From Gammaproteobacteria bacterium (GTDB taxonomy: Bacteria > Pseudomonadota > Gammaproteobacteria > Ga0077536), in assembly GCA_963662545.2 (NCBI GenBank), contig CAXXLL010000003.1, positions 864,001 to 928,000 of the forward strand: a DNA stretch of 64,000 nucleotides. Reading direction: 5' to 3'. A program made the translations under genes and the position numbers. The notes under the pieces are model-generated. The model was not told the origin of the DNA. It ran no database searches and saw only the letters and a program-made list of their open reading frames with translations. Positions 26,026-59,476 of this stretch are shown in pieces. Position 1 is the stretch's first letter. Each line of letters begins with the position of its first letter.

Positions 26026-26145
26026 GGCCGTGAGCCGTCGCTGTTCACCGTCACGCCGCTGAACGCTATTGGACGACCGCTTAGAGCGCATTGCAGACGT
26101 AATCCTTGGCAGTGTTGTGCTGCCGCGACAAGGCGGCTAACGACC
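26026..26145 (+). repeat. Triple-palindrome repeat R2 (remainder at 26306-26321)
   Basis: GGCCGTGAGCCGTCGC..GACCGCTTAGAGCGCATTGCAGACGT..GGCGGCTAACGACC. Confidence 0.88.
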
Positions 26146-26305
26146 CAGACTGTGTGAAAACTATTTTCATTTTTCAAAAGTGGGGGAACTACCCTCGAAA
26201 TTGGATCTAATTGAAATGCCGATCCCTATTCGAGGGGCATAACAACTATGCTGGTGGGGAATATTTTTATTTCGTCGTCGTATTTTTGAGTTTTCACACA
26301 CTCTG
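26146..26305. mobile_element. MITE-A (160 bp) sharing IS1182 TIRs, copy 1
   Basis: CAGACTGTGTGAAAACT...AGTTTTCACACACTCTG with GACC duplication; near-identical copies elsewhere. Confidence 0.9.
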
Positions 26306-26396
26306 GACCCATAGGCGACATTGGGCAGGCTGTAATGGTTGCCCTATAGTTGCGCGTATATGCTGCTCCCATCAATTCACCATAAAGGGGAGCATC

Positions 26397-27622: not shown

Positions 27623-27755
27623 ATATCTACTTCCGACCGAGAGAGGAACTCAGCGTTCGTAGCCGATATAAATTTGGCTCGACGACCGCTTACGAGCGCA
27701 TTGCAGACGTAACCTAGAGCGGTGCTGCACTGCGGCGAGGGGGCCGCTGCCGACC
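27623..27755 (+). repeat. Triple-palindrome repeat R4 (remainder at 27916-27931)
   Basis: Degenerate site A, 31-nt linker, ACGACCGCTTACGAGCGCATTGCAGACGT, GGCCGCTGCCGACC. Confidence 0.85.
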
Positions 27756-27915
27756 CAGACTGTGTGAAAACTATTTTCATTTTTCAAAAGTGGGGGAACT
27801 ACCCTCGAAATTGGATCTAATTGAAATGCCGATCCCTATTCGAGGGGCATAACAACTATGCTGGTGGGGAATATTTTTATTTCGTCGTCGTATTTTTGAG
27901 TTTTCACACACTCTG
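27756..27915. mobile_element. MITE-A copy 2
   Basis: Matches 26146-26305; GACC duplication. Confidence 0.9.
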
Positions 27916-27999
27916 GACCCGTTGCAGACATTATCGAAATTAGCCGGTTCGTGAATCCACCTATATTCTTCCCGTTCAGTCCACATCGGGGAGAAAACC

Positions 28000-40247: not shown

Positions 40248-40543
40248 TCGTCTGCTTTTGGCCGAGGCTGTGTCAAAAGTCGAAAAATGGAGCCCGCTGC
40301 GAAAATTTTCCCCACTTAGGTTGTTATGCACGATTGATTAAGGGAACACACCGCCTAAGGTAGGCAAATCGAGCTAAACTTCTCCCACTTTCAAAATTCA
40401 AAAATACTTTTGACACAGCCTCGGCCGTAAGCCGACCTGCTCCGCTAACCTTCCGCTAAACGCTACTCGACGACCGCTTACGAGCGGATTGCAGACGTAA
40501 TCCTTAGAAGTGCTGCACTGCCGCGAGGCGGCGGCTTCCGACC
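40248..40543 (+). repeat. Triple-palindrome repeat R8 (site A split by MITE-B, site C by MITE-A; remainder 40704-40719)
   Basis: Rebuilt site A TCGTCTGCTTT-TGGCCG-TAAGCCGACCT; conserved site B and linker 2. Confidence 0.88.
40264..40422. mobile_element. MITE-B (159 bp) copy 1
   Basis: TIR GAGGCTGTGTCAAAAGT / ACTTTTGACACAGCCTC, GGCC duplication. Confidence 0.88.
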
Positions 40544-40703
40544 CAGAGTGTGTGAAAACTATTTTCATTTTTCAAAAGTGGGGGAACTACCCTCGAAATT
40601 GGATCTAATTGAAATGCCGATCCCTATTCGAGGGGCATAACAACTATGCTGGTGGGGAATATTTTTATTTCGTCGTCGTATTTTTGAGTTTTCACACAGT
40701 CTG
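40544..40703. mobile_element. MITE-A copy 3
   Basis: Same 160-bp sequence; GACC duplication. Confidence 0.9.
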
Positions 40704-41217
40704 GACCCAAAGGCGACATGCATCAGCAAGGTCAAGCGCTGTGTTGAACGAAAATAAACCTGGCCCCTTTCCCGTTCCGCGGTATCGCCCGGAAACGAGG
40801 TGAGAGGATATTTCCACATGCCCGGTGGCTAAAGCGGGCATCCAGTCTCGCCCGTCTATTGGGGTGGTCATGAAGCCTGGGCGAAAGGCAAACGGTTGCC
40901 CTTCCTGCCAGGCGAGGCCGTGTATGAGCTGGAGGCCAATCCGGCGTCCGAGCGGTGACTGGAAATGATGACCTGAATTAGGCGATCAAACTTTTCAACG
41001 ATCGAAAAATAAATTCGACTCAAAATCAACTAATGACCTTTTGTCACTACAAAATCACCGACCGTCAATAACTTGAACCTCGAACTGCTAGTGAAGACAT
41101 GAAGTTGTGACAATTATTTGCATCTGGAGAAGCTATATTGTTGATGGGTTCTGTGAATTTAGATGCAAGCTATCCTTGTGCAAACGGGCCGAGTACGGTA
41201 ACCGGCTGGAGAAGACC

Positions 41218-42035: not shown

Positions 42036-42168
42036 ATTACCGCTATTGGCCGACTGCCGCCCCGCAACATGTTCACGCTACCAAACGCTACTGGACGACC
42101 GCTATGGAGGGTACTGCAGACGTAATCTAGGGCGGTGCTGCACTGCCGCGACAAGTCGGCTGACGACC
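42036..42168 (+). repeat. Triple-palindrome repeat R9 (remainder 43854-43869)
   Basis: ATTACCGCTATTGGCCGACTGCCGCCCC..GACCGCTATGGAGGGTACTGCAGACGT..GTCGGCTGACGACC. Confidence 0.9.
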
Positions 42169-43853
42169 CAGAGTGTGTGAAAACTCGGAATGAAGAGGAA
42201 TCACGTCGAGAACTCCTCGTCAGACGCAACGCGGCGCGGTTACGACGGCCGCGCTCGCGGTCCAATGCGATCGGTTAGTTAATGGAACATTCCTTAGAAC
42301 GGCCCCAGAAGCCGGCAGTGAAGCCGTGGATCAGGGAGTTTTCGAGGCCACAGAGGGTCTCATGCCGTCATCGCTTCGATGAGCGTAGCGACACCCAGTA
42401 GATTCATCACGCGTTTCATGTTGTAAGCGAGCACGTGCAGACTCATTTCCGTACCAACGTGTTTCAGCGTGCGCATCTGGAAGTGGGTCGAACCCATCCA
42501 GGATTTGATCGTGCCAAATGGATGCTCGACCGTCTCTCGGCGGACACGCATAGGGTCAGGTTCACGATCCAATCGCGCCTGCACCGCTTCAACAACCGCT
42601 TCATGTTCCCAACGGCTGACGCGCCGGTATCGACCCGTTGTGCATTTAGATTTGATCGGGCAGCGGGGACACGCCGAACTCCAGTAGCGCCGGATCTGCT
42701 TGCCTTTCTCCACTCGGGTGAACCGGTAAATCAGTCGCTCACCGGCCGGGCATTCATACGCATCCTCTTCGGGTTGGTAAATGAAGTCGCGCTTGCCAAA
42801 CAAGCCCTTCGCCTGGTTACCCGAGGTCTGCGGTTTCGGCAGATAGGTCGTGATGCCGGCTTTAGCGCACGCCAAGATCTCTTCGCCACTGAAGTACCCG
42901 CGATCCGCAACGACGGTCAACTCCTTCTTATCCAGCGCCTCTTTGGCTTTCTCCGACATGTTCGACAGTTGCGCCCGGTCATGACCTACGTTCGTCACTT
43001 CATGTGCCACAATCAGATGACTCTTCGTGTCGACCGCCGTCTGCACGTTGTACCCCACCATGCCGCTGCCACGGCCGCTCGTCGCCATCGAGCGCGCGTC
43101 CGGGTCCGTCAGTGAGACCTGATGGTCCGGCGTCTCCTCGAGCCGTACCTCGAGCTTTTTTAGGCGGCCTATCTCTTCCTTCAGTACCTCGATCTTGTCC
43201 TTCAAACGCTGCGACTTGTCACCTGACACCGCACGCTCCTGGCGGTCGGCACTTGCAATTTCCGCCAGGTACCGCTCAACGCTCTCGTCAATCTGCTGCA
43301 ACCGACGTTTCAGCTTCGCCTTCGTGAAGTTCCGGTCACGGTTGTTTACCGCTTTGAACTTGCTGCCATCTATCGCCACGAAGGCTTCCGAAAACAGCTG
43401 CAGCTTACGGCACAGCATCACGAACTCCCGGCATACCAGACGAATGGCGTCACCGTTATCTTTGCGGAAATCGGCAATGGTCTTGAAATCAGGCGCCAGA
43501 CGACCCGTCAGCCACATCAGTTCCACGTTCCGCTGCGCCTCCCGTTCCAGGCGACGGCTCGATTGAACCCGGTTCAGGTAACCGTAGATATAGAGCTTCA
43601 GCATCGTCGCCGGGTGATACCCCGGTCGACCCGTCTCATGCGCATCGGTTCTGAAACTCAGACCTGACAGATCCAACTCATCGACGAACACATCGATGAC
43701 CCGCACCGCACTCTCCTCAGCGACATAATCGTCCAGACACTCGGGAAACAGCGTTGTTTGGCGGCGGTCCGCGCCTTCAATGAACCCGCTCATCAACGAC
43801 TCCCCAGGACCGAAAGAGTGATCTTATCTGATGCAGAGTTTTCACACACTCTG
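42169..43853 (-). mobile_element. IS1182-family element, copy 2 (transposase 42360..43796)
   Basis: Same TIRs, GACC duplication, 478-aa ORF differing from copy 1 by one residue. Confidence 0.93.
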
Positions 43854-43869
43854 GACCCACAGCGGACAT

Positions 43870-43934
43870 GGCTATCGGAGCGGCAGTGAAGGGAATGCCA
43901 CTGTCAAGCGTCCGCCTCCAACGACCCGTTATGC
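43870..43934 (-). other. Truncated integron attC site (R'' and L'' half)
   Basis: Minus strand GCATAAC-GGGTCG-TTGGAGGCGGACGC just after the cupin stop; complements the cassette start GTTATGC. Confidence 0.65.
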
Positions 43935-43938
43935 TGCA

Positions 43939-44382
43939 TTATGAATGCACAGTGACCCCATTTCTGTTCATTACTTCTACGATCTTTTCTATGTTCGGCG
44001 GACCTGGCGGAACTTCATTGTCGAGCGCCGTGAACATTTGAGCAGCTATGCTCCCGGAGCCTGTTATTTCCAGCATTTCGCCGCCATCGGGGCCGTATTT
44101 GAACGCATGTATCGTTCCACCCGGCACAAAAACAAGTGTGCCTGGTGTGCACAGTTCGGTCCTTCCATCACAGGTGATTTCAACGCTTCCTTTAATCACG
44201 AAAAATGATTCATCCCAGTCGTGGCTATGAGGCGGAGGTCCCATGCCTTTGTCTCCGGACTGATACGTAAATTCCTGTCCCTGTGTTTCTTGTTTTGAAG
44301 CGAGCACGGTTACGTCAGTGCCTACGACGTTCAACGCGGATTTATAAGTCTCCGGTTTGATAATAAGCGGGGCTCTACTCAT
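43939..44382 (-). CDS. Cupin domain protein (integron cassette)
   Basis: PPPHSHDWDESF..VPGGTIHAF. Confidence 0.88.
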   Translation of the reverse strand: MSRAPLIIKPETYKSALNVVGTDVTVLASKQETQGQEFTYQSGDKGMGPPPHSHDWDESFFVIKGSVEITCDGRTELCTPGTLVFVPGGTIHAFKYGPDGGEMLEITGSGSIAAQMFTALDNEVPPGPPNIEKIVEVMNRNGVTVHS

Positions 44383-44420
44383 GGGATTACTCCTCCGACG
44401 GTGTAGATGGGCCGGTTGCG

Positions 44421-44474
44421 GCATAACGCTAGGATAACCTGCTGTAACACGTCAGGATGATCCGTTTGTTAGGT
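44421..44474 (-). other. Integron attC site
   Basis: Minus strand ACCTAAC...GGATCATCCTG...CAGGTTATCC...GTTATGC: RYYYAAC/GTTRRRY ends, paired L boxes with an extra base. Confidence 0.75.
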
Positions 44475-44498
44475 GGATGATGCATTTCAAATGTGAAC

Positions 44499-44930
44499 TC
44501 AGACCCCTTCGGCTAGCTGCCGCTCGTAACAAGCAGCATCGTAGTAGCCACGAGACTGTGCGATCAGGCCTGATTCGCCCATCTCCCAAACCTCGACTCC
44601 GCTCACGCGAACGGAATTTCCCGTGCCGCCCGGTCCTGTGTTGGTCCCAGTGAGCGTCCATACAAAGAACGCAGCATTACCTGCGACGAGAAGCTGATCA
44701 AGACTGATTTGTAAGTCGGGAAAAGCTTCCATGTAGCTACTTGCTACAGCTGCTAGCGCCGTGCGTCCAATGGCGGGTGGTCCGTCGTTTATCGATTGTC
44801 GTCCGACTTCCTCGTAGCACGAGGCCATTCCCTCCGGATCGTGCGAAGACCACGCACTCGCACACCGAATCGCGAGATCCCATAGTGCTTGGGATGGGGC
44901 CGTCGAACCTGGCGTCGAGGCTAATTGCAT
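44499..44930 (-). CDS. SnoaL-like/ester cyclase family protein (integron cassette)
   Basis: AWSSHD..AFPDL..WTLTGTNTGPGGTG..YYD; upstream core site GTTAGGC at 44999-44993. Confidence 0.85.
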   Translation of the reverse strand: MQLASTPGSTAPSQALWDLAIRCASAWSSHDPEGMASCYEEVGRQSINDGPPAIGRTALAAVASSYMEAFPDLQISLDQLLVAGNAAFFVWTLTGTNTGPGGTGNSVRVSGVEVWEMGESGLIAQSRGYYDAACYERQLAEGV

Positions 44931-45086
44931 TACCGTTTCCTCCGGTTTTTTGCTTTAACGAAAATGTGTCCTTATTTGGGAACTGTATAGAGGCCTAACA
45001 TTAAATGGTCGCTACAATGACGCGATTAATCGAATCATTGTGACGCATAATAATCGGTGCAGACATAGCTGTGGTTACGGTAGCCG

Positions 45087-45231
45087 GGGATGGCTCTTGG
45101 CCGACTGCAGCCGTGCTCCCTCCACTCGGTTCTTGAAGCAACTGGACGACCGCTATGAAGGGGAATGCAGACGTAATCTAGAACGGTGCCGCACTGCCGC
45201 GATCAGACCGCTGACGACCCGAAGGAGACAT
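45087..45231 (+). repeat. Triple-palindrome repeat R10 (intact, 145 bp)
   Basis: TGGCCGACTGCAGCCGT-31nt-ACGACCGCTATGAAGGGGAATGCAGACGT-29nt-CAGACCGCTGACGACCCGAAGGAGACAT. Confidence 0.9.
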
Positions 45232-45863: not shown

Positions 45864-45996
45864 AAGCCCACGCCTGGCCGCGAGCCGAACTGCTCGGCTA
45901 ACGTTCTGTTGAACTCAACTCCACGACCGCTTTGGAGCGCATTGCAGACCGAACCTAGAGCAGTGCTGCACTGCGGCGAGGCGACGGCTAACGACC
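45864..45996 (+). repeat. Triple-palindrome repeat R11 (remainder 47682-47697)
   Basis: TGGCCGCGAGCCGAACT..GACCGCTTTGGAGCGCATTGCAGAC..GACGGCTAACGACC. Confidence 0.9.
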
Positions 45997-47681
45997 CAGA
46001 GTGTGTGAAAACTCGGAATGAAGAGGAATCACGTCGAGAACTCCTCGTCAGACGCAACGCGGCGCGGTTACGACGGCCGCGCTCGCGGTCCAATGCGATC
46101 GGTTAGTTAATGGAACATTCCTTAGAACGGCCCCAGAAGCCGGCAGTGAAGCCGTGGATCAGGGAGTTTTCGAGGCCACAGAGGGTCTCATGCCGTCATC
46201 GCTTCGATGAGCGTAGCGACACCCAGTAGATTCATCACGCGTTTCATGTTGTAAGCGAGCACGTGCAGACTCATTTCCGTACCAACGTGTTTCAGCGTGC
46301 GCATCTGGAAGTGGGTCGAACCCATCCAGGATTTGATCGTGCCAAATGGATGCTCGACCGTCTCTCGGCGGACACGCATAGGGTCAGGTTCACGATCCAA
46401 TCGCGCCTGCACCGCTTCAACAACCGCTTCATGTTCCCAACGGCTGACGCGCCGGTATCGACCCGTTGTGCATTTAGATTTGATCGGGCAGCGGGGACAC
46501 GCCGAACTCCAGTAGCGCCGGATCTGCTTGCCTTTCTCCACTCGGGTGAACCGGTAAATCAGTCGCTCACCGGCCGGGCATTCATACGCATCCTCTTCGG
46601 GTTGGTAAATGAAGTCGCGCTTGCCAAACAAGCCCTTCGCCTGGTTACCCGAGGTCTGCGGTTTCGGCAGATAGGTCGTGATGCCGGCTTTAGCGCACGC
46701 CAAGATCTCTTCGCCACTGAAGTACCCGCGATCCGCAACGACGGTCAACTCCTTCTTATCCAGCGCCTCTTTGGCTTTCTCCGACATGTTCGACAGTTGC
46801 GCCCGGTCATGACCTACGTTCGTCACTTCATGTGCCACAATCAGATGACTCTTCGTGTCGACCGCCGTCTGCACGTTGTACCCCACCATGCCGCTGCCAC
46901 GGCCGCTCGTCGCCATCGAGCGCGCGTCCGGGTCCGTCAGTGAGACCTGATGGTCCGGCGTCTCCTCGAGCCGTACCTCGAGCTTTTTTAGGCGGCCTAT
47001 CTCTTCCTTCAGTACCTCGATCTTGTCCTTCAAACGCTGCGACTTGTCACCTGACACCGCACGCTCCTGGCGGTCGGCACTTGCAATTTCCGCCAGGTAC
47101 CGCTCAACGCTCTCGTCAATCTGCTGCAACCGACGTTTCAGCTTCGCCTTCGTGAAGTTCCGGTCACGGTTGTTTACCGCTTTGAACTTGCTGCCATCTA
47201 TCGCCACGAAGGCTTCCGAAAACAGCTGCAGCTTACGGCACAGCATCACGAACTCCCGGCATACCAGACGAATGGCGTCACCGTTATCTTTGCGGAAATC
47301 GGCAATGGTCTTGAAATCAGGCGCCAGACGACCCGTCAGCCACATCAGTTCCACGTTCCGCTGCGCCTCCCGTTCCAGGCGACGGCTCGATTGAACCCGG
47401 TTCAGGTAACCGTAGATATAGAGCTTCAGCATCGTCGCCGGGTGATACCCCGGTCGACCCGTCTCATGCGCATCGGTTCTGAAACTCAGACCTGACAGAT
47501 CCAACTCATCGACGAACACATCGATGACCCGCACCGCACTCTCCTCAGCGACATAATCGTCCAGACACTCGGGAAACAGCGTTGTTTGGCGGCGGTCCGC
47601 GCCTTCAATGAACCCGCTCATCAACGACTCCCCAGGACCGAAAGAGTGATCTTATCTGATGCAGAGTTTTCACACACTCTG
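45997..47681 (-). mobile_element. IS1182-family element, copy 3 (transposase 46188..47624)
   Basis: Same TIRs, GACC duplication, ORF identical to copy 2. Confidence 0.93.
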
Positions 47682-47734
47682 GACCCTAAGCAGACCTTGT
47701 AGGTTCTTGTACTCTGACCTCAAACCATTAGCAG

Positions 47735-48442
47735 CTATTCAGCGCGCTGCTTATCCCAGCCGTTCCAGAACGTCACATCGCGCGCCGGGAAGCGTTTCGC
47801 GGGTCTTAAATCGCCACCCTTGAGCCAGGCGACCGGTAGCAGTACCGCCTGCGTGTAATGCGCAGGAACGCCGAGAAGTTCCTGGATCTCTTTTTCATAC
47901 ATCAGAGTGAATGTCGTCCAGGCCGACGCAACTCCGCGCGCGCGGAGCGCCAGCATCAACGACCAGGCCGCCGGTAGAATGGACCCCCACATGGAGCCTT
48001 GGGTAAAGACATCTTCGTGGTCGAAGCGGTTTTCCAGGAAAAGCATGATGTGTACGGGGACGCGGTGCAGATTTTCTATTAAATGGACCGCCGATTTGAC
48101 GATTAGAGGCATTCTTTGCTGACGCGGGTCGTCGTCAGGGTACTGTTTATCGACGGCCACGCCGGTGCGCGTTACTCCGGTTTCACCGGCCAGGTAACGC
48201 TCCGCCCCCTGGCGATACAGGTCAGCTATACCCGAGCGTAAATGTTCATCCGTGACTACGACGAAGCGCCAGGTCTGAGAATTCGCTCCGGTCGGTGCCT
48301 GGAGCGCCACTTCGATCGCTTCTTCGATCAGTGATTCCGGAACGGATCGCTCGAGGTCGAGGCGCAGACGGACCGTGCGCGTGGTCTTCATAACATGATC
48401 GACGCTTGCGAGGTCGATTTTCTTGGGGGCTTGCTCCGCCAT
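47735..48442 (-). CDS. Nitroreductase family protein
   Basis: TTRTVRLRLD, QAPTGANSQTWRF, SILPAAWSLMLALRARG..WTT. Confidence 0.9.
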   Translation of the reverse strand: MAEQAPKKIDLASVDHVMKTTRTVRLRLDLERSVPESLIEEAIEVALQAPTGANSQTWRFVVVTDEHLRSGIADLYRQGAERYLAGETGVTRTGVAVDKQYPDDDPRQQRMPLIVKSAVHLIENLHRVPVHIMLFLENRFDHEDVFTQGSMWGSILPAAWSLMLALRARGVASAWTTFTLMYEKEIQELLGVPAHYTQAVLLPVAWLKGGDLRPAKRFPARDVTFWNGWDKQRAE

Positions 48443-48581
48443 ATCTGCTCTCCAAGTTCGTTGTGCGAACGGGGACGGATAGCCGTCTCCGACATATTAC
48501 ACAGGCGTTGCTCCGACGCCGCTGTGATTCGATATCATTGCGCCGCTCTTTGTCTGCCAAGTGGCGCAGCGCGTCCAATTG

Positions 48582-49448
48582 TTAGTCGTTCAGTTCAACC
48601 GTGTCGCCCTGTTTGATTTCACCGGGCACGCGCACATGGGCGCCAACGCCAAGGCATTGGTCGCCTTCCTTCACCACAGTGCGCAATATCGATTTGTCAT
48701 ATTCGATATCGGCTTGTGGTCTTACGGTCATACCGCAACGCACCGTCGGCATGGTGATCTCGAGGGTTGCCGAGCCGATCGCCAGAGTCTTGCCGACCCA
48801 GTCGTTTTCGACCAGGCCCGTTACCGCCGGGTCGGTCTCGATGTAGAAGTTCGGACGAAAACGCCGGATATCCCAGTTCGCGCCGGGATTTTTCCTGCGC
48901 ATGTAGTCCATCGACGCCGTGGTGATCATATGGATCTCCTCATTGTCGAAAAAAGTGCCGGGGACCGCGACATGATCCATCAGCACCTCTGGGAACAGAG
49001 ACATCTCCGGTACCGGTTCGCCCGGCTCGCGCGCGAAAAGCTCCGTCATTTCCTCAAGGAATACTTGTTCGTCCGGTTTGTGGCGCTTGTAGAATTCGAG
49101 ATTGCTAGCTGGTTCGATTGCGCGCAACGTCGCATCACGCTCGATCAATTCGCTCAGTTTAGCGTTGACCCGCGCATCGTCGCTGCCGATCGTTTGCCCG
49201 TCGGGGAACGTGATAACGACCGGTGTGATCGCATCATCGCTCGGCTCGGCGCGATACCGCGCCGAGCACAGCATGAGCTGCGGATAACGCTTGCCCCATG
49301 TAATCTCCGCCCGTCCCTCGTCGCGCATCGCCCAGCACCGGTCACCCGCGACGCCGGTTTGAGTGACCTTGCAGCGCTCGATTGTGTCGCCCTGCATCGA
49401 TTTCACCGGAAAACGCCAAATCTCCTTTATCACTCCAACGCGCGCCAT
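48582..49448 (-). CDS. MOSC domain protein
   Basis: IWRFPVKSMQG, GDRCWA, RRFRPN, RCGMT. Confidence 0.92.
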   Translation of the reverse strand: MARVGVIKEIWRFPVKSMQGDTIERCKVTQTGVAGDRCWAMRDEGRAEITWGKRYPQLMLCSARYRAEPSDDAITPVVITFPDGQTIGSDDARVNAKLSELIERDATLRAIEPASNLEFYKRHKPDEQVFLEEMTELFAREPGEPVPEMSLFPEVLMDHVAVPGTFFDNEEIHMITTASMDYMRRKNPGANWDIRRFRPNFYIETDPAVTGLVENDWVGKTLAIGSATLEITMPTVRCGMTVRPQADIEYDKSILRTVVKEGDQCLGVGAHVRVPGEIKQGDTVELND

Positions 49449-49565
49449 ATTCGACTCCTCGCCACTATTGCTGTATGCCCACTGTCAAGAGTAACTCCGT
49501 TAGACACCCGCGCGCACTTCAAATCGATGCCCGTCGAATAATCGAGCTCAGAGCAACAACTCATA

Positions 49566-49873
49566 AGGTCTGTTATTGGCCGAGGCTGTGTCAAAAGTAT
49601 TTTCGAATTTTGAAAGTGGGAGAAGTTTAACCCGATTCGCCTACCTTAGGCGGTGCGTTCCCTTAATCAATCGTGCATAACAACCTAAGTGGGGAAAATT
49701 TTCGCGGCGGGCTCCATTTTTCGACTTTTGACACAGCCTCGGCCGGAAGCCGAAGTCACCTCCAGCGATGTTTTCTAAACAAGCTGAATGGCCGCTTACG
49801 AGCGCATTGCAGACCTGACCCCAAGCAGTGCTGCACTGCCGCGAGGAGGCGGCTGACGACCCATTTCAGCCAC
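49566..49873 (+). repeat. Triple-palindrome repeat R12 (site A split by MITE-B)
   Basis: Rebuilt AGGTCTGTTAT-TGGCCG-GAAGCCGAAGT; GGCCGCTTACGAGCGCATTGCAGAC; GGCGGCTGACGACCCATTTCAGCCAC. Confidence 0.88.
49582..49740. mobile_element. MITE-B copy 2 (inverted relative to copy 1)
   Basis: Reverse complement of 40264-40422 with a few substitutions; GGCC duplication. Confidence 0.88.
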
Positions 49874-49979
49874 CCAAGCGAAATTTTCTCGACTTGCTGG
49901 CTGAGTTGACCGAGAGTCTCCCAGAGCGCCCGCGAAGAACATTGTACAATCCACTTCGACGCACAAGGGAGGAATCACC

Positions 49980-50357
49980 ATGTCAGAACGACACACCGAA
50001 CTTTACGCAATCACATTGAAATTCCTCGACGCATTCAATCGTAACGATCTCGATGACGTCATGTCATTTTTCTCCAATGAAGCCGTTTATGAAGAGCTGC
50101 ATGGCAAGATTAACGACGGCAAGGACGCGATTCGCGAAGCCTTTGTTCCCCAATTCGAAGGAAAGTTCGGCAAAATGGAGTTTATAGAAGACGACACTTT
50201 TATTGACGCTGACGCCGGCAAGATCATGAGCGGTTGGGATCTGCATATGGAAAAAGACGGCGGGCCAGTGGTGGTGAAAGGGCTTGATCTGCTTTACTTC
50301 GAGGGCGATAAAATTGTACGCAAGCAGACGTTTGTGAAGCAGAAAGATCCGTTGTAA
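49980..50357 (+). CDS. NTF2/SnoaL-like protein
   Basis: FLDAFNRNDLDDVMSFF..GKDAIR..GLDLL..KI..K. Confidence 0.87.
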   Translation: MSERHTELYAITLKFLDAFNRNDLDDVMSFFSNEAVYEELHGKINDGKDAIREAFVPQFEGKFGKMEFIEDDTFIDADAGKIMSGWDLHMEKDGGPVVVKGLDLLYFEGDKIVRKQTFVKQKDPL

Positions 50358-50472
50358 GAGAGACGCTCTGTAAGCCGGGGCCGAATCGACTCGATAAATA
50401 AATGGGGCCAAGCAAACACGACCGTGAACGCCGTGAATTTTTACTCTGGCCCCGAGGGATGAGGAGAGCGAG

Positions 50473-50967
50473 ATGACACTGCCTGATTCTGCAATCCTGC
50501 TCCGGCGTGGAGAGGGCGACTATGTGACCATCGGGACCGGCACTCGCTGTACCTTTAAGCTCAGGGGGGAAAACACGGACGGGCATTTCGGTCTGTTCGA
50601 GTATGTGATGGAGCCTGGGACTGAAGGACCGCGGCGCCATATCCATCGTCAGATGGCGGAAATCTTCTACGTGGTCGAAGGAGAGCTCGAATTCATCGTT
50701 GGAGACGAGAAGATCACGGCCCGGGCCGGTACGACCGCCCTCGTCCCCAAGGAGGTTGTGCATGCCTTTTCCAACCCGGGCCCGCAGCGCTCGGTGTTGC
50801 TGGTTATGTTTTGCCCGGCAGACTCGCGTGAGAAATACTTCGAGGGGCTGGCTGAACTCCTCAAAGACGGGCAAGCGTCGGATCAAGAAGCCTTACTGGA
50901 GTTGATGCGGCAACATGACACCGAGCCGGTGGCGGAACCGCTCTATGGAGAAATAGATGCGCCGTAA
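50473..50967 (+). CDS. Cupin domain protein
   Basis: HIHRQMAEIFYVVEG..VPKEVVHAFSN. Confidence 0.9.
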   Translation: MTLPDSAILLRRGEGDYVTIGTGTRCTFKLRGENTDGHFGLFEYVMEPGTEGPRRHIHRQMAEIFYVVEGELEFIVGDEKITARAGTTALVPKEVVHAFSNPGPQRSVLLVMFCPADSREKYFEGLAELLKDGQASDQEALLELMRQHDTEPVAEPLYGEIDAP

Positions 50968-51019
50968 AGGAAGCTAGTGTGCTGTCCCGCAAGAAACTTA
51001 CGCTCAAATAAATCTGTCC

Positions 51020-52372
51020 CTGAAGGCTCCCCACGAATTGAAGGAGAATTCACATAAAAAATAGCCATTTAGAAAAATAAATAGCGAACAATAGGGAACA
51101 TGCATGACGTTCGGTGATCAATAACGGTGACGAAACCAAATTGGTCACGGGAGAACGCCATGCATGCACTGAGATTGTTGCACAAAATAATGGGGCAAGC
51201 CTGTCCGCAGATACACGCGGTAAGGCTAACGGCATTGATGGCGAGCGTTGAGGCCCTTTTGGTCGGCCGTCAGATGAGCTTAGCCGGTCTTGGTCGCGCC
51301 TTGCTGTCGGGGGCGCGAGTCAAACACAACATCAAGCGAGTCGACCGGTTAATTGGCAACCGTCATCTGTGGGGAGAACGAACGGAACTCTATGGGGCGA
51401 TGGCGGGGCTGGTGCTTGGACAAGGACCACGTCCGGTAATTATTCTGGACTGGTCGGATATGCGCGAAGATCGGTCATGGCAGTTGTTGCGTGCGGCGGT
51501 TCCGGTGGGAGGCCGTTCACTGACGCTCTACGAAGAAGTACATCCCTTGTCGGCGTATGACAACCGGGGTGTCAGGAAACGGTTTCTGGAGCGTCTTCGA
51601 GAGATCTTACCACCGGGGTGTCGCCCGCTCTTAGTCACGGATGCCGGCTTCCGGACGACTTGGTTTAGACAGGTCGAAGCAATGGGTTGGGACTGGGTCG
51701 GTCGGGTCCGCGGGCGCACCCATTTCCGGCTGGACAACCAGGCAAGCTGGCAACCGTGCCGGACGTTGCATGCGATGGCCAACTCACGTGTGCGGCATAT
51801 CGGGACAGTCGAACTAACGGTATCGAATCCATTGGCCTGTGACCTGTACCTGGTGAAGAAGAAAAAGCGTGGCCGTCAACAACTGACCTGCCGCGGCACG
51901 CGTGCCCGTGGTGGCCGCAGCCTTAGCTGTGAACGACGCCAGCGCGAACCCTGGATATTGGTCACCTCACTGGGGTCGCGCGCGGCCCAGCAGGTGATGC
52001 GGTGTTATCAGTTGCGCATGCAGATTGAGGAGAGTTTCCGGGATATGAAAAATGCCCGTTTGGGACTGCACTTCCGCAGCGCGCGTTCCAACAGCGCCGA
52101 GCGGCTCTCGATCCTCGTCCTGATTGGTACGTTGGCAACATTAGTCGCTTGGTTAGTCGGCCAAGCGATGCAGCGTTTCGGGCTGCAGCGCCATTACCAG
52201 GCCAATACAACCCGGCATCGGCCGGTACTCTCCACCGTCTTTCTGGGCTTGCAAAGTTTTTGCAGGCAACCCGTAAAGCTTATGCTGGCAGACATCAAGC
52301 AATCGATTATCGCCTTACACCAAAATACCGCAAACCCGTTGCGTTATGCGTAAGTTCGTGGGGATCCTTCAG
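51020..52372 (+). mobile_element. IS4-family (IS10-like) element B
   Basis: TIR CTGAAGGCTCCCCACGAA / TTCGTGGGGATCCTTCAG, 9-bp duplication AATCTGTCC. Confidence 0.92.
51160..52353 (+). CDS. IS4-family transposase
   Basis: KHNIKRVDRL, LDWS, TDAGF, YQLRMQIEESFRDMK. Confidence 0.93.
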   Translation: MHALRLLHKIMGQACPQIHAVRLTALMASVEALLVGRQMSLAGLGRALLSGARVKHNIKRVDRLIGNRHLWGERTELYGAMAGLVLGQGPRPVIILDWSDMREDRSWQLLRAAVPVGGRSLTLYEEVHPLSAYDNRGVRKRFLERLREILPPGCRPLLVTDAGFRTTWFRQVEAMGWDWVGRVRGRTHFRLDNQASWQPCRTLHAMANSRVRHIGTVELTVSNPLACDLYLVKKKKRGRQQLTCRGTRARGGRSLSCERRQREPWILVTSLGSRAAQQVMRCYQLRMQIEESFRDMKNARLGLHFRSARSNSAERLSILVLIGTLATLVAWLVGQAMQRFGLQRHYQANTTRHRPVLSTVFLGLQSFCRQPVKLMLADIKQSIIALHQNTANPLRYA

Positions 52373-52385
52373 AATCTGTCCCCTT

Positions 52386-52507
52386 TGGCAGAGAGCCGAA
52401 GTTGCCGCCGCCGCTCACTGTTACGTAAGTCGAGTGACCGCTTACAAGCGCATTGCAGACGTAATCTAGGGCGGTGCTGCACTGCCGCGATTAGGCCGCT
52501 GACGACC
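52386..52507 (+). repeat. Triple-palindrome repeat R13 (left arm of site A absent; remainder 54193-54208)
   Basis: TGGCAGAGAGCCGAAGT..TGACCGCTTACAAGCGCATTGCAGACGT..GGCCGCTGACGACC. Confidence 0.88.
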
Positions 52508-54192
52508 CAGAGTGTGTGAAAACTCGGAATGAAGAGGAATCACGTCGAGAACTCCTCGTCAGACGCAACGCGGCGCGGTTACGACGGCCGCGCTCGCGGT
52601 CCAATGCGATCGGTTAGTTAATGGAACATTCCTTAGAACGGCCCCAGAAGCCGGCAGTGAAGCCGTGGATCAGGGAGTTTTCGAGGCCACAGAGGGTCTC
52701 ATGCCGTCATCGCTTCGATGAGCGTAGCGACACCCAGTAGATTCATCACGCGTTTCATGTTGTAAGCGAGCACGTGCAGACTCATTTCCGTACCAACGTG
52801 TTTCAGCGTGCGCATCTGGAAGTGGGTCGAACCCATCCAGGATTTGATCGTGCCAAATGGATGCTCGACCGTCTCTCGGCGGACACGCATAGGGTCAGGT
52901 TCACGATCCAATCGCGCCTGCACCGCTTCAACAACCGCTTCATGTTCCCAACGGCTGACGCGCCGGTATCGACCCGTTGTGCATTTAGATTTGATCGGGC
53001 AGCGGGGACACGCCGAACTCCAGTAGCGCCGGATCTGCTTGCCTTTCTCCACTCGGGTGAACCGGTAAATCAGTCGCTCACCGGCCGGGCATTCATACGC
53101 ATCCTCTTCGGGTTGGTAAATGAAGTCGCGCTTGCCAAACAAGCCCTTCGCCTGGTTACCCGAGGTCTGCGGTTTCGGCAGATAGGTCGTGATGCCGGCT
53201 TTAGCGCACGCCAAGATCTCTTCGCCACTGAAGTACCCGCGATCCGCAACGACGGTCAACTCCTTCTTATCCAGCGCCTCTTTGGCTTTCTCCGACATGT
53301 TCGACAGTTGCGCCCGGTCATGACCTACGTTCGTCACTTCATGTGCCACAATCAGATGACTCTTCGTGTCGACCGCCGTCTGCACGTTGTACCCCACCAT
53401 GCCGCTGCCACGGCCGCTCGTCGCCATCGAGCGCGCGTCCGGGTCCGTCAGTGAGACCTGATGGTCCGGCGTCTCCTCGAGCCGTACCTCGAGCTTTTTT
53501 AGGCGGCCTATCTCTTCCTTCAGTACCTCGATCTTGTCCTTCAAACGCTGCGACTTGTCACCTGACACCGCACGCTCCTGGCGGTCGGCACTTGCAATTT
53601 CCGCCAGGTACCGCTCAACGCTCTCGTCAATCTGCTGCAACCGACGTTTCAGCTTCGCCTTCGTGAAGTTCCGGTCACGGTTGTTTACCGCTTTGAACTT
53701 GCTGCCATCTATCGCCACGAAGGCTTCCGAAAACAGCTGCAGCTTACGGCACAGCATCACGAACTCCCGGCATACCAGACGAATGGCGTCACCGTTATCT
53801 TTGCGGAAATCGGCAATGGTCTTGAAATCAGGCGCCAGACGACCCGTCAGCCACATCAGTTCCACGTTCCGCTGCGCCTCCCGTTCCAGGCGACGGCTCG
53901 ATTGAACCCGGTTCAGGTAACCGTAGATATAGAGCTTCAGCATCGTCGCCGGGTGATACCCCGGTCGACCCGTCTCATGCGCATCGGTTCTGAAACTCAG
54001 ACCTGACAGATCCAACTCATCGACGAACACATCGATGACCCGCACCGCACTCTCCTCAGCGACATAATCGTCCAGACACTCGGGAAACAGCGTTGTTTGG
54101 CGGCGGTCCGCGCCTTCAATGAACCCGCTCATCAACGACTCCCCAGGACCGAAAGAGTGATCTTATCTGATGCAGAGTTTTCACACACTCTG
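52508..54192 (-). mobile_element. IS1182-family element, copy 4 (transposase 52699..54135)
   Basis: Same TIRs, GACC duplication, ORF identical to copy 2. Confidence 0.93.
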
Positions 54193-54330
54193 GACCCACA
54201 GCGGACATTAACGATATTGGATATATCGCTATATGGGGATCAGGTCCCGTATGCGTCTTTATAAGTCCGTAGGCTGGCAAAAGCACTCCATAATTGTTGG
54301 AGTGTAAGACTTGATCCCAATCTAACTTCT

Positions 54331-55159: not shown

Positions 55160-55292
55160 ATGGCGGCTTTTAGCCGAGAGCCGTCCTGCTCAGCTAACGT
55201 ACCACCGAACGCTACGGGACGACCGCTTACGAGCACATTGCAGACGTAATCCTTACCTGTGTTGCACTGCCGCGATGAGTCGGCTCACGACC
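55160..55292 (+). repeat. Triple-palindrome repeat R14 (remainder 55453-55468)
   Basis: ATGGCGGCTTT-TAGCCG-AGAGCCGTCCT..GACCGCTTACGAGCACATTGCAGACGT..GTCGGCTCACGACC. Confidence 0.9.
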
Positions 55293-55452
55293 CAGACTGT
55301 GTGAAAACTATTTTCATTTTTCAAAAGTGGGGGAACTACCCTCGAAATTGGATCTAATTGAAATGCCGATCCCTATTCGAGGGGCATAACAACTATGCTG
55401 GTGGGGAATATTTTTATTTCGTCGTCGTATTTTTGAGTTTTCACACAGTCTG
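55293..55452. mobile_element. MITE-A copy 4
   Basis: Same 160-bp sequence; GACC duplication. Confidence 0.9.
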
Positions 55453-55641
55453 GACCCGAAGGAGACACTGGCGAAAATCGAATAACCCATCCTGACAGTT
55501 TCGAGTAGGGGAAAGTTAGCTGCGAGCGTAATGTGGCAATGCAAGACTCCCCCCATTTATTAATTTCGATCGGGTGAGTTCCACAGAAGGGTAGACCGCC
55601 GGAAAAGGGTTAAGTCACTGTTTCAGAGACGATTAGCGCTT

Positions 55642-55930: not shown

Positions 55931-56650
55931 ATGACCGACAAGGACGCAGGGAACAAACCCGGCCACGATAGAACCAGCGAGATAACACTAGAGACTGGTG
56001 GCGACCCTGCTGGTGAACGCCAGAAAACCTTCAGCCGACGAGCGCTGCTCGAAGCCGGTTGGAGCGTGCCGCTGATTGCGGCGGTGCAGTTTCCGAGCGA
56101 TGCGTTCGCGGTGTCGGTACCGACCCATGCCGACTCCCCGGACCACAGCGATACTTTCCCGCACGAGGATAGCGCGAACCCGCATCAAGACACCAATCAC
56201 AGCGACGGTTTTGCTCATAACGACAGCGGCGACCCGCACCAAGATTCACACCAGGATGGAGCGGTGGTTCACGTCGACGATGTGGTGCCGCACAATGATT
56301 TTTTCAGTCCGCACGATGATGATTCGGCATTTGGTACGCACGACGACGAGGGCGGACACTTCGATATTCAACACAGCGATAGCCCGACCCACATTGATTC
56401 TTTCAGTCCGCACGATGACGATTCGGGATTTGGTACGCACGACGACGGGGGCAGACACTTCGATAAAACCCACGGAGATATCCCACCGCCTCACATTGAT
56501 CGTTTAACCCTAGATGATGATGAGCACGACGACACGCCTCCCACACACGATGACAATCCCCACGCCGATGTAGCTCAGCATGACGATATAGCAGCGCCCC
56601 ACTACGACAACGGACCGCACGACGACACGGACCATGGGGATGGGCCGTAG
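55931..56650 (+). CDS. His/Asp-rich repeat protein with RR-type leader
   Basis: SRRALLEAGWSVPLIAAV leader followed by >20 H-x-D triplets; RBS GGAGGGG. Confidence 0.82.
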   Translation: MTDKDAGNKPGHDRTSEITLETGGDPAGERQKTFSRRALLEAGWSVPLIAAVQFPSDAFAVSVPTHADSPDHSDTFPHEDSANPHQDTNHSDGFAHNDSGDPHQDSHQDGAVVHVDDVVPHNDFFSPHDDDSAFGTHDDEGGHFDIQHSDSPTHIDSFSPHDDDSGFGTHDDGGRHFDKTHGDIPPPHIDRLTLDDDEHDDTPPTHDDNPHADVAQHDDIAAPHYDNGPHDDTDHGDGP

Positions 56651-56764
56651 GGGCCCGCCGCATGCCGAGACCACCACATTCGCACTAATGGGCTTAGCAC
56701 TTACAGCATTGGGCTTCCGAAGCCGATAAGCACCATAACGCTACCAATTCATCTATCAGATTAC

Positions 56765-56795
56765 GAAGCCCCGCCTCAGTGCGGGGTTTTTATTT
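56765..56795 (+). terminator. Rho-independent terminator
   Basis: GCCCCGC-CTCAGT-GCGGGGT followed by T-rich tract. Confidence 0.75.
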
Positions 56796-57181
56796 GCGAT
56801 TCGCATGTCGGCTAATGTTAAGGGTTGTCAGATGCCTGCCGTAGACAGTGGACGGACTGGGTCGAGAGGGTGGGGGCAGGCGTCTGACAAGCCTCAAGGG
56901 AGGAAACCGCGGGAGAAGAACGCCGGCGCGTTGGTCGGCACGGTGCTATGGGGATTTGAGGGTGGCGTTGTTCGGATTGATATGATCGGTAGCCAACGGC
57001 AAGCGGTGTGTCGGGCAAGAACGGGTCAGCGTGCAATGAGGTGGGTGGGTGACCGGACGTTGAGGAGCGGGATCGGTACCGCTATGTGGTTTCGTCACGG
57101 CGCCAAGCAAGACGGTAACGTTGCCGGTGGTAAAGCGGCGATTTGTGGGCTGGTGGGCTGGCGAGTTCGAACGGTCGAGGG

Positions 57182-58375
57182 TCAAGGTGGGTCGCCTCCG
57201 CGGTGCGGTGGTGCACAGGGCGCGTGACCGGGCTCGAAGGTGTCGATGATGTGCATCGCACCTCCACAGGACGGACAGCGTAGCCAGTCGGGTGTCGCCT
57301 CATCAGTGTTGTCGTTGTCGTTGACATCTTGGGGTGTCTCGATGCCGAGCAGAGCGCGGACCTTTGCGAGGTTCTCGGTGCGCCCGCCGTTTGCGAACAA
57401 CCCGTAATGGCGAATGCGATGGAAGCCGTGGGGTAGGACGTGGATGAGGAAGCGGCGGATGAACTCGCCGGTCTCGAGCGACAGGGTCTTGTAGCGGTTC
57501 TCCTGCTGGGCGCGATAGTCCTTCCACTTGAAGCTCACGCGTTGTTGGTCGAAGGTGATGAGACGCGAGTTAGCGATGGCGACGCGGTGGGTATATCGGG
57601 CGAGGTATTCGAGCACCGCGGCGGGTCCGGCGAAGGGCGGGCGGGCATCAACGACCCACTCGCGTTTACGCAACGCAGTGAGGAACTCGGCGAAGGCGTG
57701 CGGGTCTTCGAGTCCCTGGTATTGGCCGAAGAAGGCCAACTGTCCGCCCGCGTGGAGTTCACCCAGTTGGCCGAGGAACAGGCGTCGGAACAACCGCGAG
57801 AGCACCCGCACCGGTAAGAAGAAGTTGGGCCGACAGGCGAGCCAACGCACGCCGTCGAGCGAGAGCCCGCCGCCAGGCACGATGCAGTGCAGATGGGGAT
57901 GATGGGTCATGGCCGAGCCCCAGGTATGCAGCACGGCGGTGAGCCCCAGGCGTGCCCCGAGGTGTTTGGGATCGGCCCCGATGGTGAGCAAGGTCTCGGC
58001 GGCGGCTTTGAACAAGAGGTTGTAGATAACGGCCTTGTTCTGATAGGCGAGGTTGCCGATCTCTGCCGGCACCGTGAACACGACGTGGAAGTACGCGACC
58101 GGTAGCAGCTCGGCTTCGCGCGCGGCAAGCCATTGCCTGGCCACTGCGCCCTGGCACTTCGGGCAGTGCCTGTTACGGCAGGAGTTGTAGGCGATCTCGA
58201 TGTGGTCACAGGCGTCGCAGTGCACAACGTGGCCGCCGAGCGCTGCGCTACGACAGCGCTCGATGGCCGACATGACCTTCAGCTGCCCGAGACTGAGGTG
58301 TCCGGCGTGCGCATGACGCCAAGCCGGACCGTAGGCGCGGAAGATATCCGCGACCTCGAGCGGTTGCCGAGACAC
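57182..58375 (-). CDS. IS91-family rolling-circle (HUH/Y2) transposase
   Basis: Zn-binding YNSCRNRHCPKCQ, HUH motif HPHLH, YLARY, RIRHYG. Confidence 0.95.
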   Translation of the reverse strand: MSRQPLEVADIFRAYGPAWRHAHAGHLSLGQLKVMSAIERCRSAALGGHVVHCDACDHIEIAYNSCRNRHCPKCQGAVARQWLAAREAELLPVAYFHVVFTVPAEIGNLAYQNKAVIYNLLFKAAAETLLTIGADPKHLGARLGLTAVLHTWGSAMTHHPHLHCIVPGGGLSLDGVRWLACRPNFFLPVRVLSRLFRRLFLGQLGELHAGGQLAFFGQYQGLEDPHAFAEFLTALRKREWVVDARPPFAGPAAVLEYLARYTHRVAIANSRLITFDQQRVSFKWKDYRAQQENRYKTLSLETGEFIRRFLIHVLPHGFHRIRHYGLFANGGRTENLAKVRALLGIETPQDVNDNDNTDEATPDWLRCPSCGGAMHIIDTFEPGHAPCAPPHRGGDPP

Positions 58376-58388
58376 CTCACCCGCCGGG

Positions 58389-59279
58389 TCAGGCGGGCGG
58401 TCTCAACTCCAGGGTGAGATGTTCCAGTGGGCTCACGACCTCACGAAGCGTGCGCGTGGCGACCTGGGAGTACAGCGCGGTGGTCTCGAGCTTCTGGTGT
58501 CCGAGCAGCACCTGGATCACACGGATGTCGACCCCCTGCTCAAGTAAATGAGTTGCGAATGAATGGCGCAGCGTATGCAGCGACACGCGCTTATCGATGG
58601 TCGCTAGGTCCACCGCCGCATGACAGGCCCGGTTGAGCTGGCGGGTGGTCAGAGGGTTGACGGGGTTCTGCCCCGGGAACAGCCAGCCGTGGGGCCACAT
58701 CTTGCCCTGCGATGCAGCGCTGCGGTACCAGGTGCGCAACACCTTGAGCAAGGTCGGTGAGAGCATAGCGTAGCGGTCCTTGCGTCCCTTACCCTGCTCG
58801 ACGCGCAGGAGCTTGCGCTCACGGTCAATATCGGTGACTTTCAGCATGACTCCCTCGCCGGCGCGAAGGCCGGCGCCATAGGCGAGCGACAACGCCGCCT
58901 GGTACTTGATGCCGGGCGCGGCTTGTAACAGGCGCGCAACTTCCTCACCGCTCAAGACCACCGGGAGCTTACGTTCCACGTGCACGGTACTCATCCGTTT
59001 CATCGCATCGGGCCGCTCGAGGGAGATCTCAAAGAAAAAGTGCAAACCGGTGATGGTGGCGTTGATGGTCGTGCGAGACACGCCGGTGGAGACCATGTGA
59101 AGTTGATAACGCCGCAGGTCTTCGCTACCGGCGGTGTCGGGAGAACGGGCGAGAAAGCGGGTGAAATTCTTGACCGCACGGATATAGGCTGTCTGTGTTT
59201 TCTCAGAGAGCTTACGAAGGCGCATGTCGTCGTGCATGCGTTGACGCAACGGGCTGATAGAATGCTTGTTCTGGGTCAT
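58389..59279 (-). CDS. Tyrosine recombinase (N-terminal SAM-like domain; XerD/IntI-related)
   Basis: Catalytic set GLR, GKGRKDR, HTLRH, LLGH, TALY; no obvious IntI-specific insertion. Confidence 0.93.
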   Translation of the reverse strand: MTQNKHSISPLRQRMHDDMRLRKLSEKTQTAYIRAVKNFTRFLARSPDTAGSEDLRRYQLHMVSTGVSRTTINATITGLHFFFEISLERPDAMKRMSTVHVERKLPVVLSGEEVARLLQAAPGIKYQAALSLAYGAGLRAGEGVMLKVTDIDRERKLLRVEQGKGRKDRYAMLSPTLLKVLRTWYRSAASQGKMWPHGWLFPGQNPVNPLTTRQLNRACHAAVDLATIDKRVSLHTLRHSFATHLLEQGVDIRVIQVLLGHQKLETTALYSQVATRTLREVVSPLEHLTLELRPPA

Positions 59280-59449
59280 GGGTCTGTTCCTTGTGTTGAG
59301 TTGCATGTCGCAAACCAACATCAACACGGGACAGACCCTTCCCGTCAATCCATCGCTAACGCCTGGTGAAACCTCCCCCTACCGCGCGAGCGGTTTAGTC
59401 CCTTGGCCGTAAGCCGTCATGGTCAAGTGTGGGATTCGCATCGTCGGTG

Positions 59450-59476
59450 ATGGCTGCTTTCGGGTAAAGCGGACGT
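59450..59476 (+). repeat. Single palindromic site 29 nt beyond the split site
   Basis: ATGGCTGCTTTCGGGTAAAGCGGACGT; same arm pattern and spacing as the triple repeats. Confidence 0.7.

Follow-up and report, generated by a model that had tools for sequence, protein, structure and literature searches.

Introduction

Why should a two-gene insertion sequence lie exactly inside a palindromic, recombinase-type site, and which of its two enzymes put it there? The question is raised by a stretch of 64,000 nt from a gammaproteobacterium (C3:864001-928000 in a three-contig, 5.58-Mb assembly, GCA_963662545.2), in which a 2,588-bp element with an IS91-family HUH/Y2 transposase gene and an adjoining tyrosine recombinase gene lies among arrays of a ~130-nt repeat. 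Positions are those of this whole stretch, the window, unless they carry the contig prefix C2 or C3. An earlier note, made from the letters alone, had proposed that the pair recognises the palindromic sites, possibly as single-stranded hairpins, and that it both inserts itself there and mobilises site-flanked cargo as the engine of the array. This work confirms and generalises the observation, describing an IS91-family element that targets a 28-bp site of the recombinase type, and weighs which enzyme makes the joint and what the element has to do with the arrays.

Results

The element is inserted precisely within a 28-bp dyad

The element occupies positions 56816-59403 on the minus strand, its limits being set by an identical second copy and an interrupted third copy, with junctions at 56815/56816 on the left and 59403/59404 on the right. 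It is preceded by an 11-bp arm (56805-56815, plus strand), which fits the arm consensus of unoccupied sites and of the 45 insertions elsewhere described below, and it is followed (59404-59420, plus strand) by the 6-bp spacer (59404-59409) and the second 11-bp arm (59410-59420) of the interrupted site, which also form the start of a ~125-nt repeat family with nine genomic copies. Removal of the element restores a 28-bp near-palindrome of 11-6-11 layout, complementary at 9 of 11 arm positions, in which a TG is common to the element's first two bases and the spacer. The joined flanks have the same length as unoccupied sites, with no base gained or lost, and a target-site duplication is thus absent. 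A second dyad (59450-59476, plus strand; 27 nt, 11-5-11 with a 5-nt spacer) lies 29 nt beyond the first, just as the earlier note had it, within the same ~125-nt repeat family, and it is kept in all repeat copies compared. The note's exact pattern for the rebuilt site, its "site A", held only in part: the near-palindrome stands, whereas the pattern itself has 0 matches elsewhere in the window at up to three mismatches, the array sites forming a looser family.

These boundaries recur in other copies. A second copy (C3:~6.8-9.4 kb) is 100% identical across exactly 2,588 nt, and its left flank differs yet ends in a similar 11-bp arm. The third copy, on C2, is 99.3-99.7% identical and split by an insert of ~1.4 kb; its recombinase end adjoins the start of a ~130-nt array repeat, and its other end lies head to tail against the recombinase end of a distinct, 67-70% related element. 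Three such related elements of the genome (67-70% identical) have the same kind of junction at their ends. Among the nine copies of the ~125-nt repeat that starts at 59403/59404, three carry such elements, one borders on another small element and five are free; four of the five free copies have the uninterrupted left arm, the spacer TGGCCG and the right arm in the 11-6-11 arrangement. In a congener, an uninterrupted 11-6-11 site stands at the same distance beyond a cassette end that is similar to window positions 56668-56797. No orthologous empty locus was found in the congeners, where the right flank had no match and the left flank matched a short repeat only, so that the congener site is an analogous unoccupied one. 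Because same-genome copies, free repeats and the congener site all give the same boundaries, the rebuilt site is real and no bases were duplicated or lost. In one Massilia genome, three copies that are 100% identical occupy three different sites. Judged from its sequence and its copies, the element is an intact, recently active insertion sequence, belonging to an IS91-family subgroup with a Xer/IntI-like tyrosine recombinase gene.

The ~125-nt repeat to the right was also considered as a part of the element, and was rejected as such, since six of its nine copies are without an element and two elements adjoin the other repeat family. No non-autonomous derivatives of the element were found in the genome, apart from a single degenerate solo transposase-side end near C2:484.7 kb. 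At C2:623520-629826, two different elements of this kind stand head to tail with zero target bases between them, one with an insertion of ~1.4 kb and the other with a broken transposase gene, and in a further copy, at C2:613-615 kb, the recombinase gene is broken by three in-frame TGA codons. Transposase genes or fragments of a more distant IS91/ISCR-like kind lie at C3:2499320-2499988, C3:2047016-2047729, C3:2759468-2760058, C2:665945-666226 and C2:668973-669284, two of them within the largest array.

The same target rule applies to 45 insertions in many genomes

Alignment of the genome's three recombinase types gave 594 candidate stretches with at least 426 confirmed relatives, from which 80 loci were fetched; the hosts include Variovorax, Massilia, Methylobacter, Thauera, Acidithiobacillus, Caballeronia, Noviherbaspirillum and many uncultured Proteobacteria as well as other phyla. 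In 68 loci the recombinase-side end came with 25 nt of flank or more, and in 51 the transposase-side end with 20 nt or more; both ends were present in 47, which after removal of two exact duplicates left 45 distinct insertions for the survey, the remaining 33 loci being mostly on short contigs.

The joined flanks form a dyad with G-n-C-n-G-C-T on one side and its complement on the other, around a spacer C that is invariant (45/45). Counted from the recombinase-side junction, the conserved positions are -17 G (40/45), -15 C (40/45), -13 G (33/45), -6 G (35/45) and -4 C (45/45), and counted from the transposase-side junction, +4 G (35/45), +5 C (38/45), +7 G (41/45) and +9 C (39/45). At least seven of these nine positions are kept at 38 of the 45 sites, compared with 0.64% of 20,000 random positions from the same loci; the expectation that homologous elements would rebuild such a palindrome on joining their flanks is therefore borne out in other genomes. 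The best arm offset is again 11-6-11 once the two variable end bases are counted as element, and insertion occurs in one orientation, where arm and 6-bp spacer meet. Xer/dif-type sites have the same 28-bp build, with arms of 11 bp and a spacer of 6 bp, a likeness of geometry only.

The crossover at a shared TG, as first noted in the window, also held, in a more general form: C stands both at the element's last-but-one base and at target position -4 in 45/45, and the element's last base equals target position -3 in 33/45 (15 expected; 0 of 20,000 permutations reach this value). Outside the short site, the flanks of one locus have nothing in common with those of another, all nine flank matches linking loci of the same or near-identical genomes. 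As far as these flanks tell, target choice is a property of the whole element lineage and not of this genome. In the flanks of the other loci, the strict site pattern had 8 matches in 684 kb, and a two-mismatch pattern had 522 and was too loose for use.

It might be argued that the rebuilt palindrome is a chance feature of a single insertion, to which the weak left arms at some sites, and nothing else, would lend themselves; the 45-site survey, the free sites and the related elements refute this, and we regard coincidence as practically excluded.

The arms are conserved base by base without partner-specific covariation, with 5.16 complementary pairs per site against 4.91 after shuffling (maximum 5.49 in 2,000 shuffles). 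This suggests a protein dimer that reads duplex DNA rather than a hairpin, and the idea that the target sites are read as single-stranded hairpins is accordingly not favoured.

The two genes and the two ends

The transposase gene (57182-58375, minus strand; GTG start, 397 aa) was assigned by its NCBIfam and Pfam matches, namely NF033538 with 429.5 bits against a cut-off of 125 and the domains Zn_Tnp_IS91 (PF14319) and Y2_Tnp (PF04986). Its translation has the Zn cysteines, the HUH motif and YxxxY all visible, and no solved relative was found for it by sequence. The recombinase gene (58389-59279, minus strand; 296 aa) lies directly upstream on the same strand with a gap of 13 nt; its ATG at 59279 is preceded by a ribosome-binding-like AAGGAA, and an upstream TTG at 59348 is also open. 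The same order, recombinase then transposase, is found in two further element types of the genome and in plasmid relatives.

The recombinase has the SAM-like and catalytic integrase domains of Pfam but falls under every curated NCBIfam cut-off, the top scores being those of archaeal XerA and integron-integrase models; with 186.6 bits against TIGR02249 (cut-off 265) it does not qualify as an IntI-type integrase. Its closest solved relative is Vibrio IntI4, with an alignment split in two stretches, and the IntI-specific insertion is missing, 34 residues standing in place of 70 in IntI4 (~36 fewer). The catalytic motifs that had been read in both proteins are indeed kept: the six recombinase residues R139, K164, H235-x-x-R238, H261 and Y270 are invariant across the genome's three recombinase types and align to IntI4 and XerA. 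In a crude motif check of 53 elements, the recombinase motifs were present in 44 and the transposase motifs in 50, and the element carries its own intact recombinase in every lineage examined.

More distant recombinase-plus-IS91 pairs, with 36-50% recombinase identity, occur on many plasmids (359 records matched). The Mesorhizobium plasmid copies (L154, L165 and L166) have AT-rich inverted motifs at their flanks, quite unlike the GC-rich dyad; in the Bradyrhizobium plasmid copies (L153 and L159-L161) the repeated unit is 4.0 kb and reaches 1.4 kb past the transposase-side end; and in Clostridium (L155) copies were located in the plasmid record. The target may thus differ between plasmid lineages, the Bradyrhizobium and Mesorhizobium copies standing outside the 45-insertion rule as elements with ends not confidently fixed.

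The two ends were compared among 23 elements. The transposase-side, ori-like end (56816-56895, minus strand) has conserved terminal bases followed by a long imperfect hairpin (~56820-56840 with 56875-56895) in the consensus structure, with 19 pairs, six of them with compensatory changes, and reaching within five bases of the tip. At the recombinase-side, ter-like end (59381-59403, minus strand), a 5-bp hairpin (59381-59385 with 59390-59394) is kept in 23/23 elements, seven bases from a conserved block ending in GTCC; it never varies and hence gives zero covariation. Both ends are strongly conserved among relatives, the terminal motif included, up to the variable bases 59402-59403, and these outermost two bases differ among three copies that are otherwise 99.8-99.9% identical. 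A target-like dyad was found neither at the joined ends nor inside the 45 elements, where the best internal scores (4.9-16.1, against a target median of 17.6) are scattered.

The element and the repeat arrays

The ~130-nt repeat has 15 copies in the window, all in one orientation between 23209 and 60920 and 0.7-6.5 kb apart, and a genome-wide profile found 119 matches in at least ten co-oriented clusters, one of ~136 kb. Two 28-bp dyad sites in inverse orientation delimit each repeat, which starts with spacer plus inner arm and ends with inner arm plus spacer inverted, the outer arms coming from the intervening DNA. Between the repeats lie assorted accessory genes and many insertion sequences, and no recombinase gene was found consistently attached to the arrays. 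Site matches number 96 on both strands of this genome, compared with ~17 expected from Markov simulation. All six copies or remnants of the element in the genome lie in or beside arrays, and the reason for this placement would be that its sites are unusually common here, bounding the array repeats.

Could the pair be the engine that inserts itself and also mobilises the site-flanked cassettes, as had been proposed? The location of the six copies and remnants, the inverted sites of the element's target type around each repeat, and cassettes that recur with different neighbours and a left break at a site would all agree with it. Cassette-plus-repeat units do recur elsewhere in the genome at 98-99.8% identity with new neighbours (43854-45220 with C3:356447-359328; 47664-49862 with C2:1620420-1622634; 45923-54197 with C2:2578406-2586680). 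On the left, the re-used cassettes break off at a site or where an insertion sequence ends; their right breaks, however, fall inside the repeat and off the site, and ordinary homologous exchange between repeats explains such recurrence equally well. The cassettes moreover lack the element's end sequences, and the 45 insertion flanks elsewhere have only the short site in common.

The distribution of repeat and element also goes against an engine. Among 40 relatives, the repeat was found in only two same-genus genomes (9 and 5 BLAST matches), besides one 22-nt match in another genus (E 3.3e-4). The two congener assemblies are 89% and 95% complete, and repeated elements are often missing from such assemblies; no recombinase of this type was found in them at E<=1e-70, an absence that such incomplete assemblies do not prove. 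Their IS91 transposase sequences were limited to short fragments, one of them truncated where a contig ends, and none resembled the window element at the nucleotide level. Conversely, three other genera of the family have the element and not the repeat. In five element-bearing genomes, the site pattern at up to one mismatch occurred 4, 16, 9, 25 and 5 times per strand against 3, 16, 17, 15 and 3 for a reversed control (59 against 54), so the excess of sites is absent there.

Another element uses the same sites. An IS1182-family element of 1.7 kb is present in the window in four copies of ~99-100% identity (23324-25031, 42168-43854, 45996-47682 and 52507-54193), together with ~190-nt miniature derivatives with the same ends (near 26132-26317, 27742-27927, 40530-40715 and 55279-55464); both have inserted into the inverse spacer at the repeats' downstream sites and are flanked by a 4-bp duplication, and they represent a second, unrelated element homing there.

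Congeners, control-level counts and the IS1182-family evidence go the other way from an array engine or a mobiliser of cargo, which we consider quite improbable. The element appears as a guest in the arrays, and the building or shuffling of arrays by it is not supported. What stands of the earlier interpretation is thus the precise insertion, the catalytic motifs and the two shared bases, whereas the array engine and the mobilisation of cargo do not.

The possibility that the repeats are attC sites was likewise examined and rejected, as their ends vary where the AAC of an AAC...GTT core would lie and the genome's true attC sites are a different family. Three array repeats, folded on both strands, gave z-scores of -2.0 to +0.7 and no strong single hairpin. 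Nor is there an attI with an adjacent integrase, the two IntI genes (C2:996.7 kb and C3:1527 kb) being distant from all repeat clusters. The first belongs to a genuine integron (C2:985242-997664) with an IntI above the model cut-off and about ten classical attC sites of ~110 nt; the second (C3:1527239-1528180) has no adjacent array and one 114-nt palindrome nearby.

Another recombinase, either host XerC/XerD or a small type found near the arrays, might act on the sites, the element merely exploiting that enzyme. The 11-6-11, dif-like geometry of the sites is consistent with this, and two Xer-like proteins are encoded in the genome, along with a ~200-aa tyrosine recombinase that consists of the catalytic domain only and is present in three copies, 86-97% identical (C3:1447161-1447748; C3:352207-354605, interrupted; C2:486760-487341), two of which lie 0.3-2.2 kb upstream of an array's first repeat. 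The small recombinase was, however, not found in 40 relatives, among them both repeat-bearing congeners, and the element brings its own intact recombinase in every lineage examined; the target arms also seem unlike the AT-rich inner arms of dif. We therefore rate this alternative as very improbable.

Further features of the array region were observed. In the window, the array starts directly after a tRNA gene (19923-19996, the only known RNA family found across the window), a P4-type integrase gene (20173-21441) and an IS481-family transposase gene (21914-23002), and the whole array region may be a tRNA-linked island or have started out as one. At 55931-56797, a His/Asp-rich repetitive open reading frame (ORF) of 239 aa is followed by a short hydrophobic tail in another frame, by eye like a C-terminal sorting signal, and by a strong terminator-like hairpin; the ~120-nt end of this cassette is itself a repeat, present at four other places of the genome and in both congeners.

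Which enzyme makes the joint

We propose, at a probability of about 0.6, that the element is a guest exploiting the array sites, that its transposase acts on its ends, and that its recombinase recognises the dyad and makes, or at least directs, the joining. First, the HUH transposase would act on both hairpin-bearing ends and give a single-stranded copy, as in IS91. The recombinase would then recognise the dyad as duplex DNA and would make or at least direct the joining at the arm/spacer boundary by means of the 2-nt homology. HUH transposases and tyrosine recombinases leave activated ends of opposite polarity. This division of labour is favoured because the chemistries of the two enzymes presumably cannot mix at one joint, so that each must finish its own reaction. 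Pointing to the recombinase are the geometry of the site, which is that of a tyrosine-recombinase core site, and the break at the arm/spacer boundary. Two bases of homology beside the break recall integron and CTX-phage integration. In addition, the outermost bases, which differ among near-identical copies, are unlike a faithfully copied IS91 end.

Several observations weigh against this proposal. Both ends, with their hairpins, resemble ordinary IS91 ori and ter ends, and subterminal hairpins are among the features that passages of one account describe for oriIS and terIS of IS91 (PMC13181058). When the shared TG is counted with the element, its 3′ end in the window consists of GTCC and then CTTG; according to the same passages, IS91 uses CTTG as a target tetranucleotide, besides GTTC and GTCC, all three having T as their second base (PMC13181058). 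More often than chance would allow (14/45 against 6.4 expected, p ~0.001), the two variable end bases look like the first two of the far arm, which is just what a rule of the IS91 type would predict. In seven of the 45 targets, no more than five or six of the nine positions are kept (six in five targets, five in two). With no target-like dyad at the joined ends or inside the elements, a classical recombination between two look-alike sites is not supported. Finally, the absence of the element from the congeners, on which the guest status partly leans, rests on the two incomplete assemblies.

The main rival is a purely IS91-style mechanism, by which the HUH transposase alone would cut 3′ of a tetranucleotide (~nTYG) at the arm/spacer boundary and join a single strand, the recombinase being accessory, for example in targeting through binding of the site, in the resolution of tandem products or in excision. 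Besides the ends of classical type with ori-like and ter-like hairpins, the absence of a target duplication and of any target-like dyad in the element would suit it, and so would the CTTG of the window's ter end, if the published target list in those passages is followed (PMC13181058). The four nucleotides that precede the element also resemble the four at its ter end, strongly at the last two and weakly at the first two (C 45/45, the next 33/45, the next 26/45 against 16.4 expected), and a tetranucleotide rule of the IS91 type fits the junctions almost equally well. A tetranucleotide, however, leaves unexplained the base-specific conservation of both 11-bp arms over 26 nt. The ter tetranucleotide of IS91 is, moreover, copied faithfully, yet here the outermost bases vary among 99.8-99.9% identical copies; and the recombinase retains all its catalytic residues, which would argue for some catalysis. 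Taken as a whole, a mechanism of the transposase alone seems to us rather unlikely, while on the narrower point of whether the recombinase itself does the joining, or the joining is IS91-style, the odds are roughly even.

Among the public sequencing runs listed, 20 of 23 contain the window stretch wholly or partly, and no RNA run is among those listed. In contigs from four runs of four studies, neither the whole-element joint nor the end-to-end joint was found, which has no bearing on excision or circles, since such contigs are short, broken at element ends and devoid of rare forms.

Discussion

Based on these findings, the two-gene element of the window belongs to an IS91-family lineage that inserts at the spacer edge of a 28-bp dyad, with the transposase presumably acting on the ends and the recombinase probably involved in the choice or the making of the joint. 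IS91-family elements have been thought to choose only a 4-base target, and a literature search turned up no description of what the recombinase gene present in some of them does. The conserved 28-bp dyad and the two-base crossover at 45 insertions in many genera provide this recombinase with a testable job, connect a rolling-circle transposase with the nearest known relatives of integron integrases, and give a simple rule for annotating such elements and the sites that they leave empty. Should the recombinase do the joining, the element would be a small, self-contained, site-specific integration system. The work also sets right the attractive notion that this genome's large repeat arrays are accounted for by the element.

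A bolder version of the proposal is that the recombinase integrates a single-stranded circle made by the HUH enzyme into the duplex 28-bp dyad through two nucleotides, that replication then resolves the product, and that the recombinase could shuffle cassette-like units in trans. We consider this doubtful. If true, the recombinase would be a free-living cousin of the integron integrase and a living model for the origin of integron recombination, and in this genus the same sites bound hundreds of cassette-like units.

With IS91, IS801 and IS1294 the element shares the transposase family with its Zn and Y2 domains, the hairpins near both ends, the lack of a target duplication, and a short sequence at the insertion point that resembles its own ter end, as passages on IS91 describe (PMC13181058). 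It differs from them in its target, a conserved 28-bp dyad, in the operon-like pair of recombinase and transposase, and in the outermost bases that vary between near-identical copies. The IS91-family members ISSod25, ISShvi3 and ISWz1 are reportedly listed in ISfinder with an upstream 'phage integrase' ORF. Their two-gene layout is the one met here in 80 genome loci and in three plasmid relatives with 36-50% recombinase identity. According to parts of one report, ISShvi3 adjoins an attC site in a Shewanella integron (PMC9229058), and a survey, in the part consulted, counts 245 IS91-XerD gene couples across 15 phyla (PMC9208149). Passages of a preprint identify recombinases in IS91 and IS3 elements as the closest IntI homologues, without the IntI insertion (10.1101/542381), of which the published version, in the corresponding passages, retains only an integron-like subgroup (PMC8138268). 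In a full-text literature search, with ISfinder and TnPedia outside its scope, no description of a dyad target or of a crossover rule was found for the recombinase-bearing IS91 subgroup.

To the integron integrase the system is related through IntI4 as the best solved relative, a very short crossover homology, the lack of duplication and a possibly single-stranded partner, whereas the IntI insertion is missing, the score lies under the cut-off and the arms are conserved in sequence, not in structure; unlike an integron, it has no attI/promoter platform, and the repeats differ from the real attC sites of the genome. Mobile elements integrate at dif through Xer recombinases, and Acinetobacter plasmids carry arrays of dif modules. 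These share with the present case the 28-bp 11-6-11 geometry, the integration at the spacer edge, the head-to-tail tandems and the modules between inverse sites. In contrast to dif systems, the element encodes its own recombinase and an HUH transposase, and its arms are GC-rich, presumably unlike those of dif.

The REP/RAYT system was considered as well and set aside, as the HUH protein here is of the IS91 Y2 type, not Y1, and the element has defined ends and moves as a unit. ISPpu9, of the IS110 family, is described in parts of its literature as found in REP sequences, and IS1111 elements and introns as found in attC, in passages of the report on the Shewanella integron (PMC9229058). As a site-specific guest of an abundant palindromic repeat, the element resembles in its way of life the IS1111-attC group, the group IIC-attC introns and the REP-targeting ISPpu9, although the enzymes differ.

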